IMG/VR virus record: IMGVR_UViG_3300028780_000001
Origin: a virus
Reading direction: 5' to 3' (one strand)
Length of the DNA: 64,000 nt
Shown here: positions 1,895 through 18,871 of the stretch, piece after piece
Layout: each line of letters starts with the position of its first letter
Position numbering within the stretch: position 1 is the first letter of the stretch
The notes under the pieces: model-generated
What the model saw: only the letters and a program-made list of their open reading frames with translations
Told to the model about the DNA's origin: nothing
Databases searched by the model: none
Position numbers and translations under genes: made by a program

Positions 1895-1970
1895 AATTGT
1901 CGACGCGTTTCGATTGATGTAGTATCGGGTCTCGTCGACGTTGTTCGACTTTTATAGAAAGGAACAGAAA
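1871..1970 (+). promoter_or_regulatory. early promoter-leader cassette (variant copy)
   Basis: Palindrome CTAGGTCGACCTAG 1871-1884 + T-run; -35 TTGTCG 1897-1902, 17-nt spacer, -10 TAGTAT 1920-1925; AGAAAGGAACAGAAA 1956-1970 then ATG 1971. Confidence 0.55.
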
Positions 1971-3009: not shown

Positions 3010-3389
3010 TGCAACGCGCCTTTACGCTAGATGGCTGGGGTAATGGCCCGCTCTTCGCACCTGTCGTGAAGCAAAGACCGCTCGCACGCCCGAAAGGTCT
3101 TCAGGGTACGGTTAGAAGGCGTCAGGAGAGGGGGCGTACGCCTCGCTGGGCCGATCGGAAGGCAATGGCGGCAATCTACCGTCAAGCGCGCCTGTTGACC
3201 CGTCTAACGGGCGAATTATGGGTCGTTGACCATATCGTTCCACTGTTCGGAAAGTACAACGGCGCCCATATCGTGAACGGCTTGCATTGGGAAGGGAACA
3301 TGCGGGTCGTTCATTGGCGTGAAAACGCACTCAAGGGGAATTTTGAATGGCCCGATATGCCGGTTAAACAGTTAGAGTTTTTACTCTAA
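3009..3389 (+). CDS. HNH endonuclease
   Basis: VDHIVPL...NGLHWEGNMRVVHWRENALKGN (His-Asn-His core). Confidence 0.8.
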   Translation: MQRAFTLDGWGNGPLFAPVVKQRPLARPKGLQGTVRRRQERGRTPRWADRKAMAAIYRQARLLTRLTGELWVVDHIVPLFGKYNGAHIVNGLHWEGNMRVVHWRENALKGNFEWPDMPVKQLEFLL

Positions 3390-3480
3390 TTTGGGCGATT
3401 GACGTCGAGAAAGGTCGAGAATACTATTCGTCTAACGGTTCGCAACGTGCGTTCCGATCCACAGAAAGGAATAGAAAGAA
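3372..3480 (+). promoter_or_regulatory. early promoter-leader cassette
   Basis: TTAGAG-N6-CTCTAA 3372-3389 (covers HNH stop); -35 TTGACG 3399-3404; TCGA at 3405/3415; -10 TACTAT 3422-3427; AGAAAGGAATAGAAA 3463-3477. Confidence 0.65.
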
Positions 3481-4149
3481 ATGAAAAAGATCGCTTTCGC
3501 CGTTGCAGTCGCCTTCGCTTCGATCAATGCCCACGCAGACGACTGGATGCCGCGCATTCAGGTCGGTTCCGGCTATCAGTTCTCTAAGGACATGGGCGAT
3601 GGAACCTGGATTCAGCAAGGCGCATTCAACAATCACGAGCAGACAAACGGCGCGGCGTTATCGATTGGACTCACGGGTCGTATCTGGACTAGCGGTCCAT
3701 GGTCGGTCGACTATCACCTTGACTATGTGTATTACGGCCAGCAGTCGGCCAGTGTCGACGGCGTTCCCGACAACCAGTACAACGCGCAAACCCATCGCAT
3801 TGTCGGATATCAGGGTGAACGCCTGAGCCCGTTTAACGGTCAAGGCCACGTTCAAGGTATTCCGCTCACGCTCGATATCGGCTACACGTACAACGGATGG
3901 CGCGTATCGGCTGAAGGCGGCGCTTGGGAGTACTGGAATACGTGGCACGAGTCGCTGTATGATCTGTCGAACCAATGGGTCGACCTTTCTCACGTCACCA
4001 AGCCGCAGACTGGATTCGTCGTTGGCGCTCGCGTCGAGCATGGCCCGCTGTCGCTGTCGTACCGGTACTACCAAGTCAAAGAACAGTGGAATCCGCAACC
4101 GGGACTTGTGACAGGTACTCAAATGCTCATGCTACAGTACAAGTTCTAA
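3481..4149 (+). CDS. outer-membrane beta-barrel protein with signal peptide
   Basis: MKKIAFAVAVAFASINAHA signal peptide, alternating aromatic/Gly strands, C-terminal ...LQYKF. Confidence 0.65.
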   Translation: MKKIAFAVAVAFASINAHADDWMPRIQVGSGYQFSKDMGDGTWIQQGAFNNHEQTNGAALSIGLTGRIWTSGPWSVDYHLDYVYYGQQSASVDGVPDNQYNAQTHRIVGYQGERLSPFNGQGHVQGIPLTLDIGYTYNGWRVSAEGGAWEYWNTWHESLYDLSNQWVDLSHVTKPQTGFVVGARVEHGPLSLSYRYYQVKEQWNPQPGLVTGTQMLMLQYKF

Positions 4150-4170
4150 ACTCTGTAAGGACTGTTTATC

Positions 4171-4380
4171 ATGCCAGAAAGAAAACTTTTGTCGATCTTT
4201 GTCGAGTGGCGCGATGAAAAGGGCGATCGCGATTCGGTCACGTACTACGCCGAAACGCTTGGGGATTCACGCGCCAGGCTTCGTGCTGCGCAACGGGTCG
4301 AGATTTGTCGATCGTCTCAGTTCGTGATCACCGCGTATCGTTTCGAACATAGCGACGGTTCGGTAACCAACGCTATTTAG
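4171..4380 (+). CDS. hypothetical protein
   Basis: ATG ORF; stop TAG lies inside cassette inverted repeat. Confidence 0.5.
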   Translation: MPERKLLSIFVEWRDEKGDRDSVTYYAETLGDSRARLRAAQRVEICRSSQFVITAYRFEHSDGSVTNAI

Positions 4381-4480
4381 AGTCTTTCCTCTAATTTTCA
4401 GGTTCCGTTCGTCGAGATTGTTCGATAAGATTCTTTCACGGTCGACGAACGGCCGGAACCTAGAAAGGAATAGAAAGATC
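4377..4480 (+). promoter_or_regulatory. early promoter-leader cassette
   Basis: TTAGAG 4377-4382/CTCTAA 4389-4394; TCGA at 4412/4422/4442; -10 TAAGAT 4426-4431; AGAAAGGAATAGAAA 4462-4476. Confidence 0.6.
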
Positions 4481-4732
4481 ATGGACAAGATTCGGATTAC
4501 GCCGCTCGACACGAAAAATCTTGACGAAATTACCTTGGTCGATCCACTAATTACCGCGTTTCGCAACGCGATGCGCTTCGGAAACTCCACGGTTATCGCG
4601 ATGATCAAGGGTTCTCCGTACATTTTCTTCGTCGAAAAATCTTCTCTTGGGCTCGACAAGTTTTACGCCCGACTGCTGAATGAGAACGGCGAAATCGTTG
4701 CAATCTGCGACTTCGACAGTTTCGATATGTAA
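4481..4732 (+). CDS. hypothetical protein
   Basis: ATG right after cassette leader. Confidence 0.6.
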   Translation: MDKIRITPLDTKNLDEITLVDPLITAFRNAMRFGNSTVIAMIKGSPYIFFVEKSSLGLDKFYARLLNENGEIVAICDFDSFDM

Positions 4733-4739
4733 ATCAACC

Positions 4740-4770
4740 GGGCGCCGCGAGCGCCCATTTCTTTCGTTTT
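4740..4770 (+). terminator. intrinsic terminator
   Basis: GGGCGC-cgcga-GCGCCC followed by ATTTCTTTCGTTTT. Confidence 0.6.
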
Positions 4771-4782
4771 GGAGAACGAACC

Positions 4783-5076
4783 ATGCGCACTGGACCTAAC
4801 TTCCGATCGCTTCAAATCCTGCTGAAGACCCGCGAGCAGCGTCGCGTCGACGAAGCGTTCGACGAAGCGTTCGACGATGTCACATACGATCGCTCACGCG
4901 CCGTCGAACTGGCGAAACTCGAAGACGCCGAAAAGGCGTATCACCTTTCGGCTCAATTCCGCCTTGACGTGATTCAGGAACTGATCGACGAAGGCCGCAC
5001 ACGCCAGCAAGCGGAAGGCATGACGCGGGATCAAGCGCGCCTGTTCCGTGAAGCACAACGCCTGGGCGCAATGTGA
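4783..5076 (+). CDS. hypothetical protein
   Basis: GGAGAA RBS before ATG. Confidence 0.55.
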   Translation: MRTGPNFRSLQILLKTREQRRVDEAFDEAFDDVTYDRSRAVELAKLEDAEKAYHLSAQFRLDVIQELIDEGRTRQQAEGMTRDQARLFREAQRLGAM

Positions 5077-5576
5077 ACAGCGGCGCAACCATAAGCGAGT
5101 GCGGTCTGTACCGGATGGACCTGTTCCGCATTGTTAGCAAACCAACGGCAGAGCCGATCGAGATAGTTTACGTTGGTGTGAATCCGTCGACGGCCGGTCC
5201 TTTAAATGACGACCAGACCATCGCAAAACTTCGCGAGTTCACGAGGCGATCTGGCGCCTTCAAGTTCTCTATTGTCAATCTGTTCGCCTATCGCTCGACC
5301 GACGTAAAGGAACTCGCCAAGGTTTCGGACCCGGTCGGAAAATTGAACAACAGGGCTATTAGCGATGCGCTCGCGCGCTCGGATATCGTCGTCCCAATGT
5401 GGGGGTCGCGGAACAAGCTTCCGAAGGTTCTATGGCCGCGCATCGATGAAGTTGTCGACGGGATTCGACGCTCGAACAAGCTGGTTATGACGTTCGGATT
5501 CACAAAGACCGGCGACCCTAAACACCCTTTGATGCTTGGGTACGACACCAAGCTAACACTATGGAACCTGGAATGA
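5073..5576 (+). CDS. DUF1643-like protein
   Basis: SECGLYRMDLFR, VGVNPSTAG, IVNLFAYRSTD motifs as remembered for DUF1643; GTGA overlap start. Confidence 0.55.
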   Translation: MNSGATISECGLYRMDLFRIVSKPTAEPIEIVYVGVNPSTAGPLNDDQTIAKLREFTRRSGAFKFSIVNLFAYRSTDVKELAKVSDPVGKLNNRAISDALARSDIVVPMWGSRNKLPKVLWPRIDEVVDGIRRSNKLVMTFGFTKTGDPKHPLMLGYDTKLTLWNLE

Positions 5577-5779
5577 AATTCGCATCTAGCCTTTGGCTCG
5601 TTAGCGTCTATGCTGAAAGATCACACACGAATCCTTCGTGGACGACAAACGTACGAGCGACGAGCAAGCATGGCGCGATCATTTGCGCCATGACCGTTTA
5701 TCAAGGGGCGATTGGTCGCATCGAGTGCGAGCCTTTCGACGGATACGGCGAAGCGTCGCCGGAATGGACGGGCGAATGA
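5561..5779 (+). CDS. hypothetical protein
   Basis: ATG ORF, start uncertain (alt 5573). Confidence 0.4.
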   Translation: MEPGMKFASSLWLVSVYAERSHTNPSWTTNVRATSKHGAIICAMTVYQGAIGRIECEPFDGYGEASPEWTGE

Positions 5780-6003
5780 AGTCCGATCTTAAAGAAGGCG
5801 ACACACCGCCGGAAGACGTTGGCGAGATTTACGCCGACATGCACCTTCAGTTCGAGGCGCGGTATCCGACGGCGTCGCACCGCAAGATCGCGACAATGGT
5901 CGCCGTTCACTATATCGAAGAGTCGTTGCGCGTTACGCGCGAACGTGACTTGCTTCAGCTTGCGTTCGATAACCTGAAGGAGGCGGCGAAGTCGGTCGAT
6001 TAG
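5776..6003 (+). CDS. hypothetical protein
   Basis: ATGA overlap with upstream stop; stop TAG inside cassette repeat. Confidence 0.5.
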   Translation: MKSDLKEGDTPPEDVGEIYADMHLQFEARYPTASHRKIATMVAVHYIEESLRVTRERDLLQLAFDNLKEAAKSVD

Positions 6004-6089
6004 AGTGTTTCCTCTATTGCGCCGGTCGACGCTTGTCGATAGTATTCGTTCACGGTCGCGTGACCGGCGCAACGCAGAAAGGAACAGAA
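6000..6089 (+). promoter_or_regulatory. early promoter-leader cassette (short form)
   Basis: TTAGAG 6000-6005/CTCTAT 6012-6017; -35 TTGCGC 6017-6022; TCGA 6026/6036; -10 TAGTAT 6040-6045; AGAAAGGAACAGAA 6076-6089. Confidence 0.6.
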
Positions 6090-6269
6090 ATGCGTACTTT
6101 TGACGATCATAGCGGCTTGCTCAAGACCCTGGATGAAAAGCACTTCAGCGAGTTTCGCACGAAGCACGGCGCAATCCTGTTCATCGTCGGCTGTGCGCTT
6201 GTAGGCCTCCTGGTTCCCCTGTGCGGTGTTCTGTGCTTCACTAACTGGCTCGACCCGCTCTTTCACTGA
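6090..6269 (+). CDS. small membrane protein
   Basis: ATG after leader; hydrophobic AILFIVGCALVGLLVPLCGVLCF. Confidence 0.55.
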   Translation: MRTFDDHSGLLKTLDEKHFSEFRTKHGAILFIVGCALVGLLVPLCGVLCFTNWLDPLFH

Positions 6270-6272
6270 ATC

Positions 6273-6458
6273 ATGACCGCGAGCCTGCTAGACGACGATT
6301 CAATAAGCCTGGTCCGCAAGTTCGTTGCGGTCTTTGGCGCCGACGCGTACGAACGCCTGTGCGACAAGTTCGCCGGGCAACCGGACGAGCGTTTAATCTC
6401 AACCATGAAAAGGGCCTTGTATGGCGACCCGCAAGAAACCGATCCCCGTACCGATTGA
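6273..6458 (+). CDS. hypothetical protein
   Basis: ATG ORF in train. Confidence 0.4.
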   Translation: MTASLLDDDSISLVRKFVAVFGADAYERLCDKFAGQPDERLISTMKRALYGDPQETDPRTD

Positions 6459-6684
6459 AGACGCGCGCTTCATTGCGCATGGCGTAACCGACCCGGAACT
6501 TACCGAGGCCCGTACGAAGGGCTATTCGGTCGCGTTCCTGTACGAGACGAAGGGTATATCGCTCGACGAATGGCAAAAGGTCTGGTTTGCATTCCGCCCC
6601 TCGAAAGAAGAGGAAATGGAGCGGACCATGTCCGAAGCCGTCCGCACAGGCAACGCCCGCAACCCCGTTCGAATCGAGTTTTGA
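6421..6684 (+). CDS. hypothetical protein
   Basis: ATG ORF in train. Confidence 0.45.
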   Translation: MATRKKPIPVPIEDARFIAHGVTDPELTEARTKGYSVAFLYETKGISLDEWQKVWFAFRPSKEEEMERTMSEAVRTGNARNPVRIEF

Positions 6685-6686
6685 TC

Positions 6687-6905
6687 ATGCCAAACACAAT
6701 CAGACATACCCATCGCCTCATGCGAATCAAAGACGGCCTGTCGTTCGTCGTCGAAATCGAACTGAACATTGATGAAATCGCACAGTCGCTGGCGGCACGC
6801 GCGATCGAGTCGAAGAGTCAGAAGTCGCAAGCCTTGAACGGCGATATCAAATGCAGGGTGATTTCTACCGGCGACGATATCCAGAAGAAGACACTACAGG
6901 TTTGA
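6687..6905 (+). CDS. hypothetical protein
   Basis: Internal ATG 6687 of ORF 6570-6905, 2 nt after upstream stop. Confidence 0.45.
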   Translation: MPNTIRHTHRLMRIKDGLSFVVEIELNIDEIAQSLAARAIESKSQKSQALNGDIKCRVISTGDDIQKKTLQV

Positions 6906-6908
6906 GCC

Positions 6909-7274
6909 GTGGCAAAGGACCGTTCAGACTATCTCTTTACGCGCAAGACCATTCGAGAGAGTATCCCCCTCAGAAGTGGCCTTGAGGCCCGCGAGATAGC
7001 GGCTGTGAGCGGTTACTCGCTGATTTCTGTACGCAGGGTCATTGCAGAACTAAAAGCCGCTGGTGACGTCTTCATCATTAGCTGGAAGGTCGAGCGAGAC
7101 GAGGAAGGATTTCCAACAGGCCAGCCGCGAGCACTTTATGCGCGTGGTGCGAAACGACCGGATGCACCGCGACCGGCGCCGATACCTAAGCCGCTTGTTT
7201 ACAAGCGCTATCGCGGGCGACGTGATCGCAAGCGCATTCACTTACGTTTATTTGGGGATGTCAATGAGTCTTGA
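6909..7274 (+). CDS. winged-helix-like DNA-binding protein
   Basis: REIAAVSGYSLISVRRVIAELKAAGDV helix-turn-helix-like segment; basic tail. Confidence 0.45.
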   Translation: MAKDRSDYLFTRKTIRESIPLRSGLEAREIAAVSGYSLISVRRVIAELKAAGDVFIISWKVERDEEGFPTGQPRALYARGAKRPDAPRPAPIPKPLVYKRYRGRRDRKRIHLRLFGDVNES

Positions 7275-8013
7275 AGAATTGATGAATAGCATGGCCGGAA
7301 ATCTGTTGTTCCGCTCGAACCGGTTCAAGGGAACGGTCATTGCGCTGTGCAATCTGACGACGAACTTCGTCGAGCCGTGGATTGTTGGCGGATACCTCGT
7401 GATCATGGTCGACCCGCAGCACGAGCGCACGTACTTTGACGGCTTCGCGGTGTATCGCATCAAGTCGACGATTCTCGAAGCGCTTCCCTTCCTTCGTCGC
7501 GCCATGATGCAAACGAAAGTCGTTTTCGTCGCTGGCTTTCCGCCTTGCACCGATATGGCGGTGAGCGGGGCTCGCTGGTTCGAGCACAAGCGCAAGCTTG
7601 ACTCGATGTTTCAGGCGAAGGCGGTCGCGGTTGCCGAACAGTGTCGAATGGTTGGCGAGCTATCCGGCGCACCGTACCTTGTCGAGCAACCTGTAAGCGT
7701 GCTATCGCGTGTTTTTGGTAAGCCGCAGCATAGCTTTCATCCATGGCAATACACAGCCTACTGCGACGAGGACAATTACACGAAGCGTACGAACCTATGG
7801 ACGGGCAACGGCTTCGTCATGCCTGGTCCGAGTCGCTTCCCTGATACGCCAGCGCCCGATGACCGCATTCATAAAGCGCCGCCGGGAGAAGATCGAGCGA
7901 ACTTCCGCAGCGCAACGCCAAAGGGCTTCGCGCGAGCGGTCTATTGCCACAATGCACCGCATATTGTCGAAATGCGTCGACTGGAAATGGAAGCTTACCC
8001 GGACTCCCTGTAA
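7258..8013 (+). CDS. C5-cytosine-methyltransferase-fold protein (motif I degenerate)
   Basis: GFPPCTDMAVSG (PC motif), VEQPVS (ENV-like), TNLWTGNGF; Gly-loop position reads LCNLTTNF. Confidence 0.55.
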   Translation: MSMSLEELMNSMAGNLLFRSNRFKGTVIALCNLTTNFVEPWIVGGYLVIMVDPQHERTYFDGFAVYRIKSTILEALPFLRRAMMQTKVVFVAGFPPCTDMAVSGARWFEHKRKLDSMFQAKAVAVAEQCRMVGELSGAPYLVEQPVSVLSRVFGKPQHSFHPWQYTAYCDEDNYTKRTNLWTGNGFVMPGPSRFPDTPAPDDRIHKAPPGEDRANFRSATPKGFARAVYCHNAPHIVEMRRLEMEAYPDSL

Positions 8014-8126
8014 TGGAAGATACCCTCACAACCGCCGGTTGCCTTGTGGTGATCATTCTTGTCTGCTGGATTTTCGCGGAAGGAATAAATCTCTTCGGGC
8101 GCTGGCTGTGGAGCAGGAAACGATGA
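8013..8126 (+). CDS. small membrane peptide (37 aa)
   Basis: TAATG overlap; TTAGCLVVIILVCWIF hydrophobic core. Confidence 0.35.
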   Translation: MEDTLTTAGCLVVIILVCWIFAEGINLFGRWLWSRKR

Positions 8127-8479
8127 GAACGCAAGACCTTGAACGAGCTATTGTCCAGTGTAAGAAATTCTTTGTCAGTCCTAAGCATGGTCGCGCCGTC
8201 TATGAGTACAGCGATATTCGTGAGGTGCTCGCGACGAACAAGGTCGACGCGACAAAGATTACTAACGGAATGATGGGTCGCATGATCGCCAGATTTGGCG
8301 GGTTTGTTCTCCATCAGTCGACGATCGGCGGTAGAACTGTTTCGACGGTTCAGGCCGCGCCGGAACGTATCGAGCAATTGCGCAAGCTGGTGTCGAGCTA
8401 CGTCGACAAGCCGTCAAAAGGGTCGAACGGCGTGCGTTTTGGCGCCGGTCCAAAATACTCAACAAGGGCGAGGTTCTAA
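8123..8479 (+). CDS. hypothetical protein
   Basis: ATGA overlap with upstream stop. Confidence 0.5.
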   Translation: MRTQDLERAIVQCKKFFVSPKHGRAVYEYSDIREVLATNKVDATKITNGMMGRMIARFGGFVLHQSTIGGRTVSTVQAAPERIEQLRKLVSSYVDKPSKGSNGVRFGAGPKYSTRARF

Positions 8480-8697
8480 TGAGTCAGTCGCGCAAGGGTT
8501 CGGCGTTCGAGGCGCTAACCAACATTGCAATCGGAATCGTCGTGTCGATGATCGCGAACGCTACCGTTTTTCCGCTTTTCAACTTCCATCCGTCGGGCTC
8601 GCAAAACTTCGAGATTACGGCAATCTACACCGGCATTTCCTTCGTGCGATCGTACCTGATTCGTCGGATGTGGAATTCCATAGGGACAAGGGTCTAA
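8479..8697 (+). CDS. small membrane protein
   Basis: TAATG overlap; two hydrophobic segments. Confidence 0.55.
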   Translation: MSQSRKGSAFEALTNIAIGIVVSMIANATVFPLFNFHPSGSQNFEITAIYTGISFVRSYLIRRMWNSIGTRV

Positions 8698-8699
8698 TC

Positions 8700-8951
8700 A
8701 TGTATTGGGATTCAGAAGGGGAATGTTTCCGCTACAAGATCACGGAAATTAACTGGTCGGACATCGCCAAGGCGTACGCGCGCTGCAATGCTATCGTCAT
8801 ATCGAACATCGTCGGCTGGACCCAGTACGGTTTTCGGGATATTTCGACCGGCGCGACGATCATGGAGACGCGCATAGGTGTAACCTCCTATCGTGCGCTG
8901 TACGTTGCCATGGTCAAATATGTCGCAAGCAAACAAGGTGCGTCGAAATGA
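8700..8951 (+). CDS. hypothetical protein
   Basis: Internal ATG 8700, 2 nt after upstream stop. Confidence 0.5.
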   Translation: MYWDSEGECFRYKITEINWSDIAKAYARCNAIVISNIVGWTQYGFRDISTGATIMETRIGVTSYRALYVAMVKYVASKQGASK

Positions 8952-9247
8952 ATCGAAGCGAAGCGATGGATATTATTCAGCGGTCGATCAATGACGCGAA
9001 GATGAGCCTTCCCTGTTTTCTGGTCGACCTTGGCAAGGTGTTCGGCGGTGCATACGCAGGAATTGCAATCGTGTTCGCGGACAACGAAGACGCTGCAGCG
9101 CGCCTCGTGAACCAGACATACAAAGACGCCCTTCACCTGAACCCGTCTTCGTTCGGCCAGCACACCAACCGCGAGCGTCAGTGCAAGGCTTCTGATTGCG
9201 ATCGCATGGACTCGTCGGTGCCGGGCGCATTTATCGTAATGGGGTGA
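8948..9247 (+). CDS. hypothetical protein
   Basis: ATGA overlap. Confidence 0.5.
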   Translation: MNRSEAMDIIQRSINDAKMSLPCFLVDLGKVFGGAYAGIAIVFADNEDAAARLVNQTYKDALHLNPSSFGQHTNRERQCKASDCDRMDSSVPGAFIVMG

Positions 9248-9251
9248 TATC

Positions 9252-9434
9252 GTGAAAGAATCGAAACGCGTCGACAACCGGGTATTTTGCGATACATGCA
9301 ACAGCTTGCGATCGAAAGACTGCAGCCGGGCAGATTGCGGTATGCGCATCGAGGTTACAGCCGTTCCAAAGGATGATGTCTACTTTATCGCTGAAGGCTG
9401 CAGCGTAACCACACGTAAGGCCATGCTGGATTAG
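9252..9434 (+). CDS. Cys-rich small protein
   Basis: GTG start; CDTC...CSRADC. Confidence 0.4.
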   Translation: MKESKRVDNRVFCDTCNSLRSKDCSRADCGMRIEVTAVPKDDVYFIAEGCSVTTRKAMLD

Positions 9435-9446
9435 GAAGGTGTCGCG

Positions 9447-9599
9447 ATGGACGATTTCGGAACGCTTATTTCGAACACGCCAGCGTACGCGCACGGCGCA
9501 TGCCTTTGCGGTTTCTTCGTGTTTATGATGTGTGCGGAGTGCAACATGTCCGAACACTTTCACGACGAACTGCTTCGCGCGTACGGTGCGATTGAATGA
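9447..9599 (+). CDS. Cys-rich small protein (50 aa, below ORF-track cutoff)
   Basis: AGGAAGG RBS 6 nt upstream of ATG 9447; read by hand. Confidence 0.4.
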   Translation: MDDFGTLISNTPAYAHGACLCGFFVFMMCAECNMSEHFHDELLRAYGAIE

Positions 9600-9766
9600 A
9601 CCAATCGTACATGTTAATGTTCGTTTTTGGCTTCTTTACCGGGCTCGTTGCTGTCGGATGGTTCATTGTATTTTTGTCGCGGTATCGTGAAGTGCAGTTT
9701 AAGAAATTGGAGAATTCGACATGGGTCGACAAACGATTTGGGATGGTCGAGGACTACCCGAAATAG
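9596..9766 (+). CDS. small membrane protein (56 aa, below cutoff)
   Basis: ATGA overlap; MLMFVFGFFTGLVAVGWFIVFL. Confidence 0.4.
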   Translation: MNQSYMLMFVFGFFTGLVAVGWFIVFLSRYREVQFKKLENSTWVDKRFGMVEDYPK

Positions 9767-9996: not shown

Positions 9997-10268
9997 AGCG
10001 CGACTCCATCCAGGCGCGTGATATCACGCCGGGAATGACCATTGTTCCGCCGATCCGCACCATGCGCCACGCGCTCGTCGAGCGGGTCAGGCGCGATGGC
10101 GACGGGCTCGTGATCGATACGCAAGGCACACCATTCGATAAGAATGACATTCCGCGAAACATGCGCAATCACAACACATCCTATATAGTTCTCGTGACCG
10201 ACATCGGCCTGAAATCTTACGACGCAAACCAGGTCGTTGACGTTCTGGTATATGAACCTCATGGCTAA
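9993..10268 (+). CDS. hypothetical protein
   Basis: ATGA overlap. Confidence 0.5.
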   Translation: MKRDSIQARDITPGMTIVPPIRTMRHALVERVRRDGDGLVIDTQGTPFDKNDIPRNMRNHNTSYIVLVTDIGLKSYDANQVVDVLVYEPHG

Positions 10269-10446
10269 ACCAAGCGGAGGGAGGGGTATTCGTCGGCGCG
10301 GCCTGATATGGGGTCAATCGTTCGAAGGTCCGGGTACGATTGGATACTGTTACATCAAGTGTCTTAAATGCCCCAATGCGACGCAGCGCGACAGACCTTT
10401 GTGTCGGCTGTGCAGTGAGAAAGAAAACAGAAGGCGGATGAAATGA
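10261..10446 (+). CDS. zinc-ribbon small protein
   Basis: CYIKCLKC...CRLC. Confidence 0.45.
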   Translation: MAKPSGGRGIRRRGLIWGQSFEGPGTIGYCYIKCLKCPNATQRDRPLCRLCSEKENRRRMK

Positions 10447-10742
10447 GCGCAACGTATGTGTATTTAGTATCCGCGTACACGTCGCACGAGTCCTGCAATG
10501 TCATCGCATGCTTCTCGCTTGAGCGCGATGCCAAGGCGTTCGCGGATCGCTGCAGAAAGTATGATGAGAAGAAGCCGCATGTTCCTTATCTCAACGAACC
10601 AGACGAAAACTGGACGCGTTGGGAAAAGGCGAACGGGCGCTGGTACGATCGGCATCCGGCGAAGCTGCATTCAGAGCCAGACGCTTATATCGTTGAGGGT
10701 ATCAGGTTGCGACCGGCCGTCATGAAAAAGGTCCCGAAATGA
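10443..10742 (+). CDS. hypothetical protein
   Basis: ATGA overlap. Confidence 0.55.
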   Translation: MSATYVYLVSAYTSHESCNVIACFSLERDAKAFADRCRKYDEKKPHVPYLNEPDENWTRWEKANGRWYDRHPAKLHSEPDAYIVEGIRLRPAVMKKVPK

Positions 10743-11056
10743 ACCTTGATAACGTTTTGGTCGTATCGTTCGAAACGCTCGTCGAGTCTGTACGGCATAT
10801 CTCTATGGACCCGGAGAAGATCAGGATTCTGATTCTTATATCGAAGACAGATAAGCCTCACTACGTCACAAATTGGGACGGAAAGGTTTTGAAAGTTAAC
10901 CCGCCTGTCAGGATGACATGTCCCTTAGACTCTGTTGAGTTTCCATGCAATAACAAGATCGCCACCGAGTTCGATCCGTTGTCGGCGTTGTCGGCGTGCT
11001 TTCGTTGCCGCGCTGTCGTTTGTGCCGTCGACAAAGGTCGAATCTTTTCGGATTAG
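10739..11056 (+). CDS. hypothetical protein
   Basis: ATGA overlap; stop TAG inside cassette repeat. Confidence 0.55.
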   Translation: MNLDNVLVVSFETLVESVRHISMDPEKIRILILISKTDKPHYVTNWDGKVLKVNPPVRMTCPLDSVEFPCNNKIATEFDPLSALSACFRCRAVVCAVDKGRIFSD

Positions 11057-11115
11057 AGTGTTTCCTCTAGGCATGTTAGCGATACACTAGACGCCTAAAC
11101 CAGAAAGGAATCAGA
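11053..11115 (+). promoter_or_regulatory. truncated cassette (repeat + leader, no TCGA boxes)
   Basis: TTAGAG 11053-11058/CTCTAG 11065-11070; TACACT 11083-11088; AGAAAGGAATCAGA before ATG 11116. Confidence 0.45.
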
Positions 11116-11400
11116 ATGTCCGATCCAAGGCAAACCCATCTTCGCTTTCTCCTTGACGCAGAGTACCGTTATCTAGGCGAGCCCATGGCGAAGGTAATAG
11201 ACGACGTTCTGCTTCTGTTGCCCGACCTGGTAGAGGATCGCGACGCGCTCGCGCAGGATGTCAACGCCGGTTTGAGTGAAGAGCACCGCGAGGCACAGAA
11301 GCGCCTCGAAAAGAAGCGCCGCGAGTTCTCGTCTGTTCTCTGTCAGGTCGAGCACCTTCGACAGGTAATCAGGCAGTATTACAGGAACACTTCGATATGA
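11116..11400 (+). CDS. hypothetical protein
   Basis: ATG after leader. Confidence 0.55.
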   Translation: MSDPRQTHLRFLLDAEYRYLGEPMAKVIDDVLLLLPDLVEDRDALAQDVNAGLSEEHREAQKRLEKKRREFSSVLCQVEHLRQVIRQYYRNTSI

Positions 11401-11807
11401 ACAAGACACCGTTTATCACGATGAAGAAGCAGGTTCGCCACATCATACCGGGCGATATCATCGTAAGCTCGACCATGGGCGCCAAGCTCGTTACGTACGC
11501 TGCACGAAGCATTGATGGTAACTTCGTTTTTTTCTTCGGACTGCCTAACGAAAAGGGCGAGTTCGACGACGAAAAGGGGACGGGCAGACGCGTTAGTGTC
11601 GACCGATTTTGGGGCGAAACTGAGTTCACCGTGATCGTTGGCGTTACCCCGACGAGTGCCGAGATTCTGCTTTTGCGAGAACAACTCGCCGCGCGTGATG
11701 CTGCGCTGGACGCGGTACTGAAGCTTGCCACGTCTCAGGCCGGTCCGCTCAATCCGGCCTGCTTCGACATCGTTGCTTTGCTTGATCGGAACGGGGTTCG
11801 GATATGA
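11397..11807 (+). CDS. hypothetical protein
   Basis: ATGA overlap. Confidence 0.55.
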   Translation: MNKTPFITMKKQVRHIIPGDIIVSSTMGAKLVTYAARSIDGNFVFFFGLPNEKGEFDDEKGTGRRVSVDRFWGETEFTVIVGVTPTSAEILLLREQLAARDAALDAVLKLATSQAGPLNPACFDIVALLDRNGVRI

Positions 11808-12190
11808 ACGAGAAAACCACCCCCGTGTCGCGCCGTCGCTTCGAGGTTGAAATTCGTGTTGTCGAAGTCGTTGACAACCCGGCGTACTACGACCCGTACG
11901 CAGAACAAAATTTTCGCTCGACAACGACCCATGATCTTTTCGACGCGGGCAATCCAAAGTTCGGCATGAAGTCAGGGTCGGATGTCCAGAAGACGATCAA
12001 GAAAGACGTCGGATATGCCGAAGTATCGTTCGACTTTAGCCTGTTGGAATTCTCGAAGTACTTGCGCGACGGTGCGATGGAAGCGATGCTGGAAGATCGC
12101 GTAAAGAATGCGGTGTTCGCATGCATCGTCGACAAGTCTTTTGGTATCGTTACGCAGCTTGTCAAGTGGTTTAAAAGGAATCCATCATGA
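11804..12190 (+). CDS. hypothetical protein
   Basis: ATGA overlap. Confidence 0.55.
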   Translation: MNEKTTPVSRRRFEVEIRVVEVVDNPAYYDPYAEQNFRSTTTHDLFDAGNPKFGMKSGSDVQKTIKKDVGYAEVSFDFSLLEFSKYLRDGAMEAMLEDRVKNAVFACIVDKSFGIVTQLVKWFKRNPS

Positions 12191-12417
12191 AAATAAGAGC
12201 CGTTCGCGTGGGCGAGCTTAGACTGGGCGCGATTATTCGTTGGCCGATCGACCAGACGCTCTACCATCGCGTCAAGGGTATCACGCGCAACCCCGGTAAC
12301 ACGGCGCTTGTAAAGGTCGACGGCGGACGTTCTATTGGCTTCTCGATCGACGAGCATGTCTATGTGCTTGAAGACGAACCGGCGCTGATCGTACTGGACG
12401 CTTTACAACTCGGATGA
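12187..12417 (+). CDS. hypothetical protein
   Basis: ATGA overlap. Confidence 0.5.
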   Translation: MKIRAVRVGELRLGAIIRWPIDQTLYHRVKGITRNPGNTALVKVDGGRSIGFSIDEHVYVLEDEPALIVLDALQLG

Positions 12418-12629
12418 CAGTCGACGAGCTTCGAGCCCTGATCAACGACCCGTCTGTTCGCGGTGACCTTGTTGTAATGGTTCCTGACGATATGGCGTTG
12501 TTTGGTGAGTCATCACCCGATGTCGCGCGCGTATCAAGACCAAGATTCTTCATCGGTTCCGACAAGTGCGAGCCCGACGACCCGAAAGCAAACTTCTTCT
12601 ACATCGGACCAAAAGGATTTAACGAATGA
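12414..12629 (+). CDS. hypothetical protein
   Basis: ATGA overlap. Confidence 0.5.
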   Translation: MTVDELRALINDPSVRGDLVVMVPDDMALFGESSPDVARVSRPRFFIGSDKCEPDDPKANFFYIGPKGFNE

Positions 12630-13039
12630 AGCCCAATTCAAACACCTATTTCGGTCGCTATCGAATTTACCTTCGAGAGGCGTCGACCGGTATGTTGATC
12701 GCGCCGTTCAGTCCGCACCTTTGGGATAGATTCATCGACAGCCTGGTTGACGTCATTATGACGCTGGTAACGTTCGCCTTCCTTATTGGGTGTATCTGCG
12801 TCTATCCGGTCGCCGTGGCACTCTTCGCCCTTTTCGCGTGCGAGGGTGACCGACTCAGAGCAAAGCGATACGAAGCATACTTGTCTCGCATGTCGAAGGA
12901 AATCAAGAGTTTCAGCAATGCCGACAAGGTCGAGTTTCTGAGCGTGCCGGACGGGTATTGTGACAAACCAATGGACGATGTGTGGATATGTACTCGCGGT
13001 AGGGGTCACGAAGGCCCGTGCGCGGACGAACGCCCATGA
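12626..13039 (+). CDS. membrane protein
   Basis: Two hydrophobic helices (VIMTLVTFAFLIGCICVYPVAVALFALFA). Confidence 0.55.
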   Translation: MKPNSNTYFGRYRIYLREASTGMLIAPFSPHLWDRFIDSLVDVIMTLVTFAFLIGCICVYPVAVALFALFACEGDRLRAKRYEAYLSRMSKEIKSFSNADKVEFLSVPDGYCDKPMDDVWICTRGRGHEGPCADERP

Positions 13040-13193
13040 CCGATCCCGTCACGGAAGATACGGAGCCGTACCGCTCCCGCGATTTCTTTACATGCGGTTT
13101 ATGCGGCGGCTCTGGCTGGGTGCCTCGCGACCCTGACATCGGAACCGATCAGGAATGTTTCGTTTGCGACGGGAAGGGAGAAGTTACAGATTA
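13035..13193 (+). CDS. DnaJ-type CxxCxGxG zinc-finger miniprotein (52 aa, below cutoff)
   Basis: CGLCGGSG and CFVCDGKG read by hand; ATGA overlap; stop TAG inside cassette repeat. Confidence 0.5.
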
Positions 13194-13289
13194 GAGGCTT
13201 CACTCTAATTTAGTTAGTGACAAGCGTCGACCGCATTCGATATGATTCGTTTGCGGTCGACGTGATCGCGATACCAGAAAGAGATAGAA
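13190..13289 (+). promoter_or_regulatory. early promoter-leader cassette
   Basis: TTAGAG 13190-13195/CTCTAA 13202-13207; -35 TGACAA 13217-13222; TCGA 13226/13236/13256; -10 TATGAT 13240-13245; AGAAAGAGATAGAA before ATG 13290. Confidence 0.65.
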
Positions 13290-13532
13290 ATGTCCGCACT
13301 TTCCGAAATCAACAGCAAGCGCTTCAATCGTGCTTCGCGTTTGTCCTTCAAGTTGATCGATCAGCAAGCCTCGAAGGCTATCGATCCGCGCGTAACGCGC
13401 CGGTTGGCTCGCATCGTTCTTTCCGCGATGCGTAACGGAATTCTCAAAGACGGTTATAAGCCGTCCAACGGTCTGAAGCGTGTCGCTCGCTACGGCCACA
13501 AGCGCAGGGCGCAACCCAAGGTTAATCCGTGA
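13290..13532 (+). CDS. basic small protein
   Basis: ATG after leader; Arg/Lys-rich. Confidence 0.55.
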   Translation: MSALSEINSKRFNRASRLSFKLIDQQASKAIDPRVTRRLARIVLSAMRNGILKDGYKPSNGLKRVARYGHKRRAQPKVNP

Positions 13533-14077
13533 CTTGGGAAACAACCCTTCAGGCTTTAGGTGCGGGCTCGCATTGCGTCGAACTCGCGTCGAGCAACGGG
13601 CGCTTTACCGCGCTCGTGAAGGTAACCGACAAGGGCTTTGTCCACCTGTTCAAGAAGCCCGACGAAGGCGACATGTACACGCCTTGGCTGCTCGTGCGCG
13701 GCGATCGCCTCGAACACCTGGCGAAGATCGAAGTAGAATTGTGGGCGTATCAGAACGCGGAACTAATGCGCCAGTTTGAACAGCCGCAAACGCGTCATTT
13801 TCAAGGATCAATCGTGAGCAAATTTCAAGTAGACCAAATCTGGCGCGCGAAACAACCAGCGAACTCGGGCGGTCTCGTTAATGACCGCGTGATCATATAC
13901 GTCGGTTCGTTCGGGCAGGTCCAGTACGACTCGCCTTCCGTTGCACACGGCCGTCGCTATCCAACCGTCGGCGAAGCCGTGTTCGATAAATGGGCCGGTC
14001 GCCTTATCGAAGAAAAAGAACTGCCTCTGGACGAATGGGCGCCGTGGAACTTTCAGAACAGGGTCGCAAACAAATGA
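13529..14077 (+). CDS. hypothetical protein
   Basis: GTGA overlap start. Confidence 0.5.
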   Translation: MTWETTLQALGAGSHCVELASSNGRFTALVKVTDKGFVHLFKKPDEGDMYTPWLLVRGDRLEHLAKIEVELWAYQNAELMRQFEQPQTRHFQGSIVSKFQVDQIWRAKQPANSGGLVNDRVIIYVGSFGQVQYDSPSVAHGRRYPTVGEAVFDKWAGRLIEEKELPLDEWAPWNFQNRVANK

Positions 14078-14322
14078 AGCTACTACTCGACGGCGAGCGC
14101 AAGGAAGTCCGCGCATCGCGACAATGGTCTATGTTCAAGCACAAAGGATTCAGAGTGACCGCGCATCGGGAAGACTGCGATACGCCTTTCGTCGAGGTTG
14201 AACTTGCGTTCGGAACCGACGTTAAAGACGGTTCTTTGAAGTACCACATGACCGATGTCGAAGCGCTCGACCTGATTGATCGTCTGCAATCCGCCCTTTC
14301 TATTTTGCCTTCGAGTAAGTAG
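14074..14322 (+). CDS. hypothetical protein
   Basis: ATGA overlap. Confidence 0.5.
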   Translation: MKLLLDGERKEVRASRQWSMFKHKGFRVTAHREDCDTPFVEVELAFGTDVKDGSLKYHMTDVEALDLIDRLQSALSILPSSK

Positions 14323-14336
14323 TGAAACGCCCTTCG

Positions 14337-14355
14337 TTTATACGCATCGACTTTG
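14337..14355 (+). promoter_or_regulatory. degenerate copy of TTTATGCGCATAAACTTTG element
   Basis: TTTATACGCATCGACTTTG. Confidence 0.3.
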
Positions 14356-14441
14356 TCGAGAATGGTCTGTACTTCAGCGTATCATTCAATGGTAGAGTGC
14401 CTTAAGGCGTTAATCGCACGCGTTCCCGGAGGAGGTTGATT

Positions 14442-14657
14442 GTGACTGTCGTGACGAAGAAGTTTCCCGAAGAGTGGATGACGCTAGACGGTCGCCGGAT
14501 CGCCGTGTCTGACATGGACGAGGATCACGTACGCGCCGTACTGAACATGATCCTGAAGCGTCGCCGGTTACGCGCACGCTTGCGTCTGGAACTGAAAGCT
14601 CTTGATGAATGGGCCGAAGAATGCATCAACGACGATGCGAAGTGGGGTAAGTCTTGA
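14442..14657 (+). CDS. hypothetical protein
   Basis: GGAGGAGG 14428-14435, GTG 14442 at 6-nt spacing (track start TTG 14436 abuts RBS). Confidence 0.5.
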   Translation: MTVVTKKFPEEWMTLDGRRIAVSDMDEDHVRAVLNMILKRRRLRARLRLELKALDEWAEECINDDAKWGKS

Positions 14658-14851
14658 ACCATCCGTTAGAAGACCTAAGCGTCCATCTGTAAAAGGCCTA
14701 CGTCGATATCGCCGAGGCGTTCAATGCGACGTTTCCGCCGATCGGCGATGCTCATGTAATATCGAAGGTGCGGTCGCTCATGCAGGAGGCTTCAGACAAG
14801 CTCGAACATGCTAAGGGCCTGGTTACGAGTGAGATATGCCGATCGCGTTAG
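14654..14851 (+). pseudogene. ORF interrupted by in-frame TAA (14690-14692)
   Basis: TTGA overlap start; protein-like reading LNHPLEDLSVHL*KAYVDIAEAFNATFPPIGDAHVISKVRSLMQEASDKLEHAKGL...; stop TAG in cassette repeat. Confidence 0.25.
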
Positions 14852-14950
14852 AGCCTTTCCTCTAATTCTCCGCTAGACGCATGTCGACACTTTTCGATAT
14901 TATTCGCTTGCGGTCGACGAAGACCGGGCCTAGAAAGGAACAGAAAGATC
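14848..14950 (+). promoter_or_regulatory. early promoter-leader cassette
   Basis: TTAGAG 14848-14853/CTCTAA 14860-14865; TCGA 14884/14894/14914; -10 TATTAT 14898-14903; AGAAAGGAACAGAAA 14932-14946. Confidence 0.65.
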
Positions 14951-15229
14951 ATGGCGACCATCCAAATCCGCGCGCAAGACCTGAAGATTGGCGACAGGCT
15001 GGTTTTCTCCGCACACAAGACCGTCGAGCTAACCGACGTCGTCAAGGCGCCCACTTCCGGCCGTGTGTACGTCTCCTGGATGGAATCGAACGAGACGCGT
15101 ACCGGCATGATCGAGCACGATTACCACTTCGATTCGTACCTGTCGTTCGCAGCGATTGAAGTCGTCGAGGGCTTGCGCGAGATTGACGCCGACGGCTTCG
15201 CGACGTATCACCTTCCGTTCAAGCTGTAA
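14951..15229 (+). CDS. hypothetical protein
   Basis: ATG after leader. Confidence 0.6.
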   Translation: MATIQIRAQDLKIGDRLVFSAHKTVELTDVVKAPTSGRVYVSWMESNETRTGMIEHDYHFDSYLSFAAIEVVEGLREIDADGFATYHLPFKL

Positions 15230-15256
15230 AATCAAGCGAGCCCGGCGCGAGTCGGG

Positions 15257-15272
15257 TTTATGCGTATAAACT
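15257..15272 (+). promoter_or_regulatory. TTTATGCGTATAAACT element
   Basis: Near-palindrome after GCCCG..CGGGT hairpin; 27 nt upstream of ATG 15299. Confidence 0.45.
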
Positions 15273-15298
15273 CTTCGCTTAACAGAAAGGAATAGAAC

Positions 15299-15703
15299 AT
15301 GAAAACCCTGATTATCGAGCCGTTCAAGCAAATGACCTTCCGCATGCTCCCGTTCGATCGCGTATGGGACTTGGAAATGATCGGCGGTATTCTCGAACTG
15401 ATCGACAGCGGCGTCGGATATTGGGCGGTCGACGAGGCGCCGGAGCCGCACCAATTGCCGTTGCTCTTCGTGCTCACCGAACAAGAGCCATTGAGTGCTG
15501 AAGGTCCGCAAACGCACCGCGTCGACCTGGCGACTGTCGCATGCGGTATCAATCGCATTCTGTCGGGCTCGTGCGAAGTGAACGTCGACGCGATCGGCAA
15601 CATCGCGAAGTTCGTCGCGACAAACGACCTATCGCACGTCGATATCGAAGACATGGACCTGATCGTCCAGGCTGGCGTGTACGGCAAGATCGTGTTCGGG
15701 TGA
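15299..15703 (+). CDS. hypothetical protein
   Basis: AGAAAGGAATAGAAC leader then ATG. Confidence 0.6.
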   Translation: MKTLIIEPFKQMTFRMLPFDRVWDLEMIGGILELIDSGVGYWAVDEAPEPHQLPLLFVLTEQEPLSAEGPQTHRVDLATVACGINRILSGSCEVNVDAIGNIAKFVATNDLSHVDIEDMDLIVQAGVYGKIVFG

Positions 15704-15831
15704 AAATACGCCACCTGAAGAAACGACCGCGACCCGTCGAGCGAGCATGGATTTACGGCGGTCGTTTCACCGTACCAAAAGAGACGGTCGACGCGATCAC
15801 CGCTTGGCTTAAGTCTTTCATTCGCATGTAA
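15700..15831 (+). CDS. small basic protein (43 aa)
   Basis: GTGA overlap; below ORF cutoff as trimmed. Confidence 0.3.
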   Translation: MKIRHLKKRPRPVERAWIYGGRFTVPKETVDAITAWLKSFIRM

Positions 15832-15839
15832 AACCGCGC

Positions 15840-15861
15840 GACTTTATGCGCATAAACTTTG
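15840..15861 (+). promoter_or_regulatory. GACTTTATGCGCATAAACTTTG element
   Basis: Perfect 14-bp palindrome TTTATGCGCATAAA 15843-15856; GAGG RBS and ATG 15873 follow. Confidence 0.5.
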
Positions 15862-15872
15862 AGGTAAGCATC

Positions 15873-16127
15873 ATGGCACGAAAGAAAATGAATGCGGCCG
15901 AACGTATCGCTGCGCTGGTTGAGCGGGCAAAGTTAAATGGTCGTGCGCGTATCACGCTGAAGCGCAACCACAGGCTAGGGTTTAGCCGCGAGGTAGTCGA
16001 GTGCTACCTGTCGGGTACCGTCTACCGAAACGGGCAGTACGTCGGCCGGCGACTGTTTTTCAGTCTTAACGGAAATAGAATCTCCCGTTCTAAGCTGCTG
16101 GGCATCATGATGGATTGGCTTGAATGA
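15873..16127 (+). CDS. hypothetical protein
   Basis: GAGGTAAG RBS then ATG 15873. Confidence 0.55.
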   Translation: MARKKMNAAERIAALVERAKLNGRARITLKRNHRLGFSREVVECYLSGTVYRNGQYVGRRLFFSLNGNRISRSKLLGIMMDWLE

Positions 16128-16537
16128 GCCTCGTCCACGTAAGCGGATACGCGCACGTCAATCCGGTCGACGTCGCCAAGGTCGAGGGGTTTCCTCTGAC
16201 GCTGTCGATCGTCGTCACGATGCGCAATGGCGACGCGCTCACGCGGTACGTCGACGAGAAGGACATCGCCGAACTCATGGAGCCTTCTACGGATGACCCG
16301 GCGACCTGGTCTGAAAGGCAGTTTAATTTGTGGCTTACGATCCACCATCCGAGTATGGGAGACTACACATCAGAGGCGGGCCGAAGATACCAAATGTATA
16401 CGAACAAGGGTCGCCGGATGACCGTGTTCGATTGGGAACTTGAAGCGGTGAACGACCATAAGCCTTGCGTCGACCGCGAGAGCGCGTTTGCCCTTAAGCT
16501 GTCTTCGTACGTGGCGCTTTTTAATCGGGCCAGTTAG
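16124..16537 (+). CDS. hypothetical protein
   Basis: ATGA overlap. Confidence 0.55.
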   Translation: MSLVHVSGYAHVNPVDVAKVEGFPLTLSIVVTMRNGDALTRYVDEKDIAELMEPSTDDPATWSERQFNLWLTIHHPSMGDYTSEAGRRYQMYTNKGRRMTVFDWELEAVNDHKPCVDRESAFALKLSSYVALFNRAS

Positions 16538-16744
16538 AATCATCGACATGCATATTCTTCGAATCCTTTTCGCGCTTGTGTCGCTCCCGTGCGTGGGAAT
16601 GGCTTGGCGCCAACCGCTGATCGATCGACAAAAGTCGACGCGTCGCAATACCCGGCCGGGTCAACTTGATTATGGCTAGGTGATCGCGGTTCGATCGTCA
16701 CGCACGACGGTTGACCGCCGACGACAATCTGACGCCGATAGAAG

Positions 16745-16799
16745 AATCGCCCGCGCTGGACGTAGACCGTTAATCTACTGGCGCGGGCGATTTGCTTTT
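16745..16799 (+). terminator. intrinsic terminator
   Basis: AATCGCCCGCGC 16745-16756 pairs GCGCGGGCGATT 16781-16792, then TGCTTTT. Confidence 0.6.
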
Positions 16800-16905
16800 A
16801 GAGGGATCGCTCTAATTTTTCTGTTTGCGACGTCGAGAAACGTCGATATGATTCGGTCATGGGTTGCAGCACGGAGCCGCGACCGGATAGAAAGGAATAG
16901 AAATC
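16798..16905 (+). promoter_or_regulatory. early promoter-leader cassette
   Basis: TTAGAG 16798-16803/CTCTAA 16810-16815; -35 TTTGCG 16824-16829; TCGA 16833/16843; -10 TATGAT 16847-16852; AGAAAGGAATAGAAA 16889-16903. Confidence 0.65.
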
Positions 16906-18837: not shown

Positions 18838-18871
18838 GGCCGCGAGGATCGTCGAGATTCGATAGGATTCG

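Follow-up and report, generated by a model that had tools for sequence, protein, structure and literature searches.

Why should one short inverted repeat lie over the end of one gene and just ahead of the promoter of the next, again and again along a phage chromosome? The question is raised by a stretch of 64,000 nucleotides (nt) of viral DNA (IMG/VR record IMGVR_UViG_3300028780_000001; hereafter the window), whose early region carries many copies of TTAGAG-N6-CTCTAA. A first-pass annotation, made from the letters alone, had offered a dimeric activator site at about -50, an RNA-processing or ribosome-release hairpin, or a recombination joint for gene modules. Comparison with related genomes leads us to a combined reading, to which we assign a probability of roughly 0.55: the palindrome ends a regulatory cassette, genes are exchanged through cassette homology, and the palindrome is a DNA site for a dimeric protein at all these promoters. 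It is the 5' terminal element of a discrete, repeated unit that heads most transcription units of an early region rich in orphan open reading frames (ORFans).

The repeat is real and far beyond chance. Its exact form occurs five times in the window (at 3372, 4377, 13191, 14848 and 16798) and never in 100 dinucleotide-preserving shuffles. Allowing Y/R ends and one mismatch adds the sites at 6000 (CTCTAT), 11053 (CTCTAG) and 25292 (CTAGAG/CTCTAG), giving eight window copies versus 0.10 expected, all within plus-strand gene arrays. The first-pass annotation had placed every copy correctly save one: the repeat put at 13190–13207 lies at 13191–13208, and the gene before it ends at 13194, not 13193. 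A ninth copy, c0, stands to the left of the window at the first (leftmost) early promoter (L022:5461, TTAGAGGGTTTTGTCTAA; L022 is the window phage's own stretch left of the window).

The early regions of relatives were retrieved by exact-protein look-ups, and four genomes were compared with the window phage, five in all: L007/L025 (helicase 96% and methyltransferase 85% identical to the window phage), L026 (methyltransferase 79%), L027 (methyltransferase 68%) and L020/L021 (~74% nucleotide identity). A 71% relative, L008, is an 11.6-kb fragment only. With up to one mismatch, the core TAGAG-N6-CTCTA has 41 copies in the five genomes, all at these intergenic sites and none elsewhere; each genome has 8–10 copies, clustered within ~18 kb. 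A composite pattern (the repeat, 50–80 nt and AGAAAGGAA) gave no match in viral contigs and six unrelated chance matches each in metagenome contigs and isolate genomes, collections that do not contain the lineage.

Each palindrome opens a larger unit, in which a short T-run, a sigma70-like -35/-10 pair, a leader, an AGAAAGG Shine-Dalgarno sequence and the ATG follow in that order. The promoter spacer between -35 and -10 carries two TCGA boxes, and the leader often has GGTCGACG, followed by purine-rich AGAAAGGAATAGAAA before the ATG. We set the boundaries of the unit at repeat position 1 and the ATG, 66–112 bp apart, because paralogous cassettes match over that extent. In seven of the eight window copies a -35/-10 pair begins within 0–9 nt 3' of the repeat, and a generic promoter scan independently found four of the cassette promoters (3399–3427, 13217–13246, 14874–14903 and 16825–16852). 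The repeat arms are as conserved as the -10 element, the TCGA boxes and the Shine-Dalgarno sequence; the -35 region and the spacer are loose.

Gene exchange and gene ends at the cassettes

The suggestion that the repeat is a joint at which gene modules are shuffled is supported by the comparison of related phages. When the five early regions are compared pairwise, all against all, 378 homology blocks result, and 62 of them start no more than 6 nt from a repeat start, versus 1.9 expected; the modal offset is 0, with 28 blocks there. Where a repeat-starting block has an identifiable downstream start codon, it ends between -10 and +12 nt from that codon in 45 of 61 cases.

Insertions, deletions, replacements and a hybrid junction all map to cassettes. 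Gene 10739–11056 is present only in the window phage, and homology to L007 ends at 10730 and restarts at 11053. Immediately 5' of copy 13191, L007 has a 418-nt insertion with an extra 80-amino-acid (aa) gene, and around copy 14848 the two phages have only 14847–14957 in common, with different flanking genes on both sides. L021 carries an extra gene just 5' of the orthologue of copy 3372, and homology restarts at 3372. A hybrid lies at L021:14368, where the upstream gene is as at window copy 14848 and the promoter and leader are as at copy 13191. In L026 (19448–19910), two cassettes of the 16798 type stand 350 nt apart around a single 77-aa open reading frame (ORF), an arrangement of cassette, ORF and cassette that would be expected for an excisable unit.

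The repeated cassette therefore supplies homology for gene insertion, deletion, replacement and permutation between related phages, and exchange by this homology explains why shared sequence begins at the first base of the palindrome. The palindrome itself may either promote recombination or merely mark the edge of the repeated homology.

Its relation to stop codons is less simple. The repeat offers stops in two frames, TAG at positions 2–4 and TAA or TAG at positions 16–18. Six genes had been said to end within it, and five called genes do: those ending at 4380, 6003, 11056 and 13194 use the left-arm TAG, and that ending at 3389 uses the right-arm TAA. At the sixth claimed end, 14851, there is only a 27-aa ORF, left over from a homologue of a 67-aa L021 gene that ends on the repeat TAG; the frame (14654–14851, plus strand) has an in-frame stop inside and is likely a pseudogene or an assembly variant. 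Across the five genomes, ~20 called genes stop on the left-arm TAG, many of them mutually unrelated, with at least 10 independent ends. The right-arm stop is used only by the family of gene 3009–3389, and a TGA that directly adjoins position 1 serves as the stop of two genes. Genome-wide, TAG is the rarest stop (15 of 73). The frame bias is real, because plain compaction predicts about equal use of both frames. In the families of copies 6000 and 11053 the shared sequence reaches ~15 nt further upstream (TCGACAAAGGTCGA-T-TAG), and the last codons and the stop therefore travel with the cassette. Genes packed against the cassette, together with stops travelling in some families, partly explain the embedded stops.

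Conservation of the palindrome and its possible role

The copies reveal what is conserved in the palindrome. Base pairs 2–17, 3–16 and 5–14 are identical in all 41 copies and pair 4–15 in 40. The spacer is always 6 nt long and takes 26 different sequences, with an A/T-rich centre. Even orthologous copies can have wholly different spacers (TTTTTA versus GGTTTC; TCTTTC versus TAAACC or GAAACA), and the most frequent spacer is present as TGTTTC and, in the opposite orientation, as GAAACA. Changes in the arms are uncompensated (G6>A twice, G4>A, C13>G, C13>T twice): the one double change affects the outermost pair only, 11 cells are unpaired, and the compensatory changes that a terminator stem should display are missing. 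No covariation signal was detected among the 41 copies, the score being reached by 215–243 of 500 shuffles. Dyad symmetry, conserved half-sites and a free spacer of fixed length are the features of a dimeric site.

Two locations are informative. Upstream of c0 there is no gene except that of the terminase, which is divergent and has its start codon 2 nt from the repeat on the opposite strand; the c0 arms, including C13>G, are identical in five of five genomes, and the c0 spacer varies. The family of copy 16798 lies directly behind a strong terminator in every genome. As a side observation, the terminase start beside c0 (L022:5456–5478, 1042–1064 nt left of the window start) has no visible Shine-Dalgarno sequence; with only 2 nt between them, the palindrome would also lie in the 5' leader of the terminase gene.

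We infer that the palindrome is a sequence-specific DNA site, with the core TAGA-N8-TCTA, for a putative dimeric protein that would act jointly on the whole early promoter set. A protein site is favored because the half-sites are invariant, the spacer is free in both orientations and covariation is absent, and because the repeat is kept both in a place without any upstream gene on its own strand and immediately behind a strong terminator. A loop-reading RNA-binding protein is disfavored because it would not tolerate the spacer variation, which is typical of dimeric DNA-binding sites. Control of the early promoters would be the likeliest role, with repression at the early-to-middle switch and activation as candidate modes; insulation or recombination targeting is possible. 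Attenuation by the weak hairpin and the T-run, if any, would be secondary.

Of the activator at -50 proposed earlier, the dimeric site fits the conservation, and the activator part is conjectural: there are three spacing classes and promoters of the same type that lack the repeat, and the early proteins searched yielded no binding protein. Between the end of the repeat and the -10, most copies have 30–32 nt; the families of 6000 and 25292 have 22 nt, and that of 11053 has 12 nt. The two classes of gap to the -35 described before, now 8–9 nt (long class) and ~0 nt (short class), hold for seven copies and fail for 11053, downstream of which no canonical promoter was found. The 10-bp steps in spacing are suggestive of helical phasing, with about three independent events only. 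An argument for an activator from poor -35 boxes was dropped, several cassettes having good -35 hexamers.

Several points weigh against the protein-site reading. Three spacing classes and the lack of a convincing promoter in the 11053 family do not fit a simple activator. It had been said that the repeat stands upstream of each promoter, which is too strong: same-type promoters occur without it near 23760–23800 and with a degenerate copy near 1900, and in the 71% relative L008 the promoter is 97% identical although its repeat is degenerate. The left-arm TAG bias is not predicted by a purely DNA-level role; it may keep a translation-linked role or a fixed joining point possible. In most cassettes of the long class, TTT comes next after the repeat, as a terminator would need. 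Many of the block starts at the repeat edge are matches between paralogues, which define the edge of the unit and do not prove crossover within the palindrome. Searches of ~50 early proteins against PHROGs, Pfam and NCBIfam found no helix-turn-helix, ribbon-helix-helix, regulator or DNA-binding family. All of the evidence, finally, is computational and built on metagenome assemblies.

Among three early proteins compared with PDB sequences there was likewise no DNA-binding family; several small basic proteins kept in all genomes are candidate binders. Conserved proteins of this kind are encoded at 2779–3009, 3009–3389, 6909–7274, 8123–8479 and 8479–8697 of the window and at L022:6013–6324. One early gene, 3009–3389 (plus strand), encodes a 126-aa protein with an isoelectric point (pI) of 11.3 and an HNH-type motif (VVDHIVPL...NGLHWEGNMRVVHWRENALKGN), 80–86% identical in four relatives. 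It has a weak match to a PHROG of endonuclease VII (E = 3e-4) and none in Pfam, NCBIfam or PDB; a single-sequence AlphaFold model, with a predicted local distance difference test (pLDDT) value of 47, was discarded.

The main alternative is a weak intrinsic terminator or attenuator, like those of the promoter-early stem-loop (PeSL) cassettes of T4-type phages (Arbiol et al. 2010, PMC2839356; Comeau et al. 2014, PMC4122927), whose hairpin and U-run would partly block read-through and insulate the cassette. The stop would lie in the stem since genes pack against their terminator, and the repeat does sit at gene ends, with a stop in the 5' arm of ~20 of the 41 copies. PeSL stem-loops terminate transcription (PMC2839356); here at least three T occur in the first 4 nt after the repeat in 25 of 41 copies, the TTT of the long class is conserved, and in some copies flanking bases lengthen the stem and bring it down to between -9 and -11 kcal/mol. 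The other 16 copies lack the T-run, however, and the core hairpin, which contains two G-C pairs, has a predicted energy of -3.7 to -5.9 kcal/mol, compared with -12 to -28 kcal/mol for the canonical terminators of this phage; its weakness had been recognized correctly at first sight, and a terminator scan picked up no copy. Single changes break pairs without compensation in any of the 41 copies, the c0 arms are conserved in five genomes where no same-strand transcription arrives from upstream, and the 16798 family already stands behind a -28 kcal/mol terminator. We regard a terminator as the primary function of the repeat as rather unlikely. Still less credible is an RNA element for a protein or the ribosome, in which a stop-bearing hairpin links the end of translation to the processing, stability or release of the mRNA. 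It would account for the independent left-arm TAG ends, set against one right-arm family and made with the rarest stop, and for the U-G tolerated at the outer pair in 8 copies, yet A-C and G-G mismatches are as frequent as wobble pairs. RNA-binding proteins usually read loops, but here the sequence of the loop does not matter and is found in either orientation; covariation is lacking, and several copies (c0 and the families of 16798 and 25292) have no gene end inside. The processing or ribosome-release hairpin proposed earlier is disfavored on these grounds and by a copy without an upstream transcript; what keeps a link to translation in play is the TAG bias.

The palindrome could also be recognized by a phage nuclease or recombination protein that directs breaks or strand exchange to the edges of cassettes, with the HNH-like product of 3009–3389 as a candidate; shuffling would then be site-directed and not a mere consequence of homology. 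Homology edges are very sharp at repeat position 1, the hybrid junction falls at a repeat, and invariant palindromic arms around a free spacer resemble the sites of many dimeric nucleases; the basic HNH-motif protein is kept in all five genomes and its gene adjoins a repeat copy, and the PeSL authors speculated likewise for conserved stems (PMC2839356). Plain homologous recombination between repeated cassettes predicts equally sharp edges, though, and self-cutting at ~10 genome sites needs extra assumptions. The link between the HNH-like protein and the repeat is speculative, the family assignment of the protein is weak and its model unusable. We consider a nuclease site improbable. There is a slim chance that a dedicated phage protein, either small and DNA-binding or an HNH-like nuclease, reads the palindrome and sets fixed joining points for gene units. 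If so, a lytic phage would practise site-directed cassette exchange with a joint that supplies the stop codon, functionally integron-like and without an integrase; the fixed junction frame and the single-base homology edge would be its footprints.

Other candidates were dropped on inspection of the sequence: an RNase III site (stem too short), a nut/boxB-like antiterminator site (wrong position, loop not conserved), a LysR T-N11-A box (geometry misfit) and a sigma54 or extracytoplasmic function (ECF) promoter element. A restriction-type GAG-N6-CTC target was dropped as well; phages avoid rather than conserve such sites.

The cassettes of the window and the phage that carries them

The repeat copies and cassettes of the window are listed below.

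Table 1. Palindrome copies, cassettes and a cassette-like promoter in the window.
Feature	Position	Strand	Repeat	Other elements and upstream gene
Repeat copy c1	3372..3389	+	TTAGAGTTTTTACTCTAA	HNH-like gene 3009–3389 runs through and stops on right-arm TAA
Cassette 1	3372..3483	+		Repeat, T-run, TTGACG-N17-TACTAT, two TCGA boxes, leader, AGAAAGGAATAGAAAG, ATG of gene 3481–4149
Cassette 2	4377..4483	+	4377–4394, TTAGAGTCTTTCCTCTAA	Upstream 69-aa gene 4171–4380 stops on left-arm TAG
Cassette 3, short-spacing class	6000..6092	+	6000–6017, TTAGAGTGTTTCCTCTAT	Repeat directly abuts -35 TTGCGC; 22 nt to -10 TAGTAT; gene 5776–6003 stops on TAG
Copy c4	11053..11118	+	11053–11070, TTAGAGTGTTTCCTCTAG	GC hairpin and Shine-Dalgarno follow; gene 10739–11056 stops on TAG
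Cassette 5	13191..13292	+	13191–13208, TTAGAGGCTTCACTCTAA	GTGACA-N18-TATGAT; gene 13036–13194 stops on TAG
Cassette 6	14848..14953	+	14848–14865, TTAGAGCCTTTCCTCTAA	TAGACG-N18-TATTAT; upstream frame to 14851 is a remnant with internal stop
Cassette 7	16798..16908	+	16798–16815, TTAGAGGGATCGCTCTAA	Strong canonical terminator hairpin ~16745–16797 (-28 kcal/mol) directly 5'
Cassette 8, short-spacing class	25292..25379	+	25292–25309, CTAGAGTAAATCCTCTAG	Heads rightward replication-gene operon
Cassette-like promoter and leader	1876..1973	+	Degenerate, CTAGTGGTTTTTAGAA	Repeat overlapped by palindrome CTAGGTCGACCTAG

The TCGA boxes, 10–11 bp apart (3404–3418, 6025–6039, 13226–13240, 16832–16846), are conserved like the repeat arms. 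In the families of 6000 and 11053 a TCGA double box also lies directly 5' of the repeat, within the end of the upstream ORF (e.g. 11027–11041). The double box may be a second regulatory site. In the 11053 family the repeat is followed by a G/C-rich hairpin (11071–11101 in the window; L027:12734–12765, arms AGGCTTCC...GGAAGCCT), whose arms vary between genomes with complementarity kept and whose loop contains a TAnAnT hexamer.

At the cassette-like promoter, positions 1876–1889 (plus strand) form a perfect 14-bp palindrome, CTAGGTCGACCTAG, just 5' of the promoter. Its L021 orthologue (~3150–3165) reads TTGGGTCGACCCAG, with a compensated change, and the L026 and L027 orthologues of the 1876..1973 site carry CTAGAGGGTTTATTCTAA and TTAGAGTGTTTATTCTAA. 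The repeat-free promoter at ~23760–23850 (plus strand) has TTGAAA-N17-TACTAT, two TCGAC boxes, a leader hairpin and a Shine-Dalgarno sequence, and lies where the primase operon and gene 23848–25047 diverge.

The repeat region consists of small genes, nearly all without family assignment; ~50 have no family match and many are missing from relatives. A DNA methyltransferase gene (7264–8013, plus strand; phrog_757, E = 1e-64; 68–85% identity in relatives) lies in its middle. The sole tRNA gene of the window, for tRNA-Glu (anticodon TTC), is at 35920–35994 (plus strand). Between two minus-strand genes, ~700 nt without called genes (18838–19551) contain promoter-like TCGA/TAnnAT elements, and equivalent gaps of ~640–720 nt are found in L007, L008 and L012. 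The gap could be a replication origin or encode a non-coding RNA.

The window genes include those for DNA polymerase, primase-helicase, tail sheath and a lytic tail protein. The closest deposited relatives are PB1-like Pseudomonas myoviruses (56% aa identity for the DNA polymerase); replication and tail genes are nearest to these phages and not to T4-like (Tevenvirinae-type) phages. At the nucleotide level, megablast searches with 14 kb and 20 kb of window sequence matched no deposited phage, and a helicase-based search for related loci in viral contigs was likewise empty. The exact helicase protein is encoded on circularly permuted contigs of ~73.4 kb from many ENA and JGI metagenomes. The window phage is a ~73-kb lytic myovirus, a distant relative of the PB1-like phages. 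Both the repeat and this type of promoter are missing from L012, a ~53% relative. The system is therefore restricted to one clade, and the mapped transcriptome of Pbunavirus 14-1 (PMC10914365) is not transferable.

The product of the early gene 3481–4149 (plus strand) resembles an outer-membrane beta-barrel and is 57–63% identical to chromosomal proteins of several Paraburkholderia species, which suggests that the gene is probably host-derived. Helicase homologs occur in Paraburkholderia and Caballeronia records. Because of the beta-barrel similarity and the records holding helicase homologs, the host is probably Paraburkholderia. Four loci found through helicase homologs (L009, L010, L011 and L013) were set aside as relatives; they are integrase-bearing Paraburkholderia elements and serve as a host clue only.

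Comparison with known regulatory and mobile systems

Operators of dimeric phage and plasmid regulators can occur in many copies, as do the P1 C1 operators, the RK2 KorB sites and the conserved inverted repeats of phiC31. The repeat shares with them a short dyad site, conserved half-sites, a free spacer, presence at many promoters of one replicon and a variable distance to the -35. It differs in being also the sharp edge of a recombining cassette, and a cognate protein was not found among the early proteins searched. In temperate phages the immunity repressor binds stoperators, 13-bp sites that lack symmetry and depend on orientation. Those of cluster A mycobacteriophages are mentioned in PMC12266134. 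Here, too, many copies of a short site lie in small gaps at gene ends, some over stop codons, with a proposed effect on through-transcription, but the element is palindromic and the phage lacks a recognizable repressor. No integrase or repressor was seen, and the phage appears strictly lytic.

Integron attC sites are likewise imperfect inverted repeats at the 3' end of a unit, often over the stop, with conserved outer cores and a variable centre. In contrast, each unit here has its own promoter, the repeat is 18 bp long as opposed to 57–141 bp, and exchange is explained by ordinary homology; no integrase is present among the genes called in the early region and on either side of it. The repeat is thus operator-like and superficially similar to stoperators and attC sites, the defining proteins of those systems not having been found here.

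The closest counterpart is the PeSL cassette, in which a stem-loop, an A/T-rich stretch, a sigma70-like early promoter, a Shine-Dalgarno sequence and an ATG follow one another and which is associated with insertions and deletions (indels) (PMC2839356, PMC4122927). Both are composite units that extend from an upstream stop codon to a downstream ATG with the same order of elements. Both occur in many copies in an ORFan-rich, variable early region, with a stem sequence conserved within the lineage, and in both, indels and replacements between close relatives fall at cassettes and units of cassette, ORF and cassette are found. Unlike the T4-like carriers of PeSLs, the phage described here is a ~73-kb relative of PB1-like phages. 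Its stem is A/T-rich and weak by prediction, whereas PeSL stems are G/C-rich, effective terminators; its arms are invariant around a free spacer, with no covariation; the stop codon lies within the stem in a fixed frame; and the promoter has the extra conserved TCGA boxes. In function and anatomy the cassettes are of PeSL type: of the features tested, four agree, namely layout, boundaries, clustering and indels. A stable terminator stem and a T4-like host phage are absent, and we therefore describe a variant of PeSL-type cassettes rather than a member.

Although the cassette principle is known, its occurrence in this lineage is new, as are the weak, invariant palindrome and the stop codon in a fixed frame. 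Until now, mobile regulatory cassettes of the PeSL type had been described from T4-like phages, and the same architecture in an unrelated lineage of soil and peat phages, probably of Paraburkholderia, suggests a general way to plug in new early genes. For Burkholderiales, the cassette offers promoter, leader and ribosome-binding site in one compact and portable module, and its invariant 18-bp site is usable as bait for a phage or host regulator. The variant also separates two functions that are confounded in T4: its stem is too weak to terminate well, and yet no part of the cassette is more strongly constrained in sequence. The old speculation that the stem is a protein target is therefore directly testable here.

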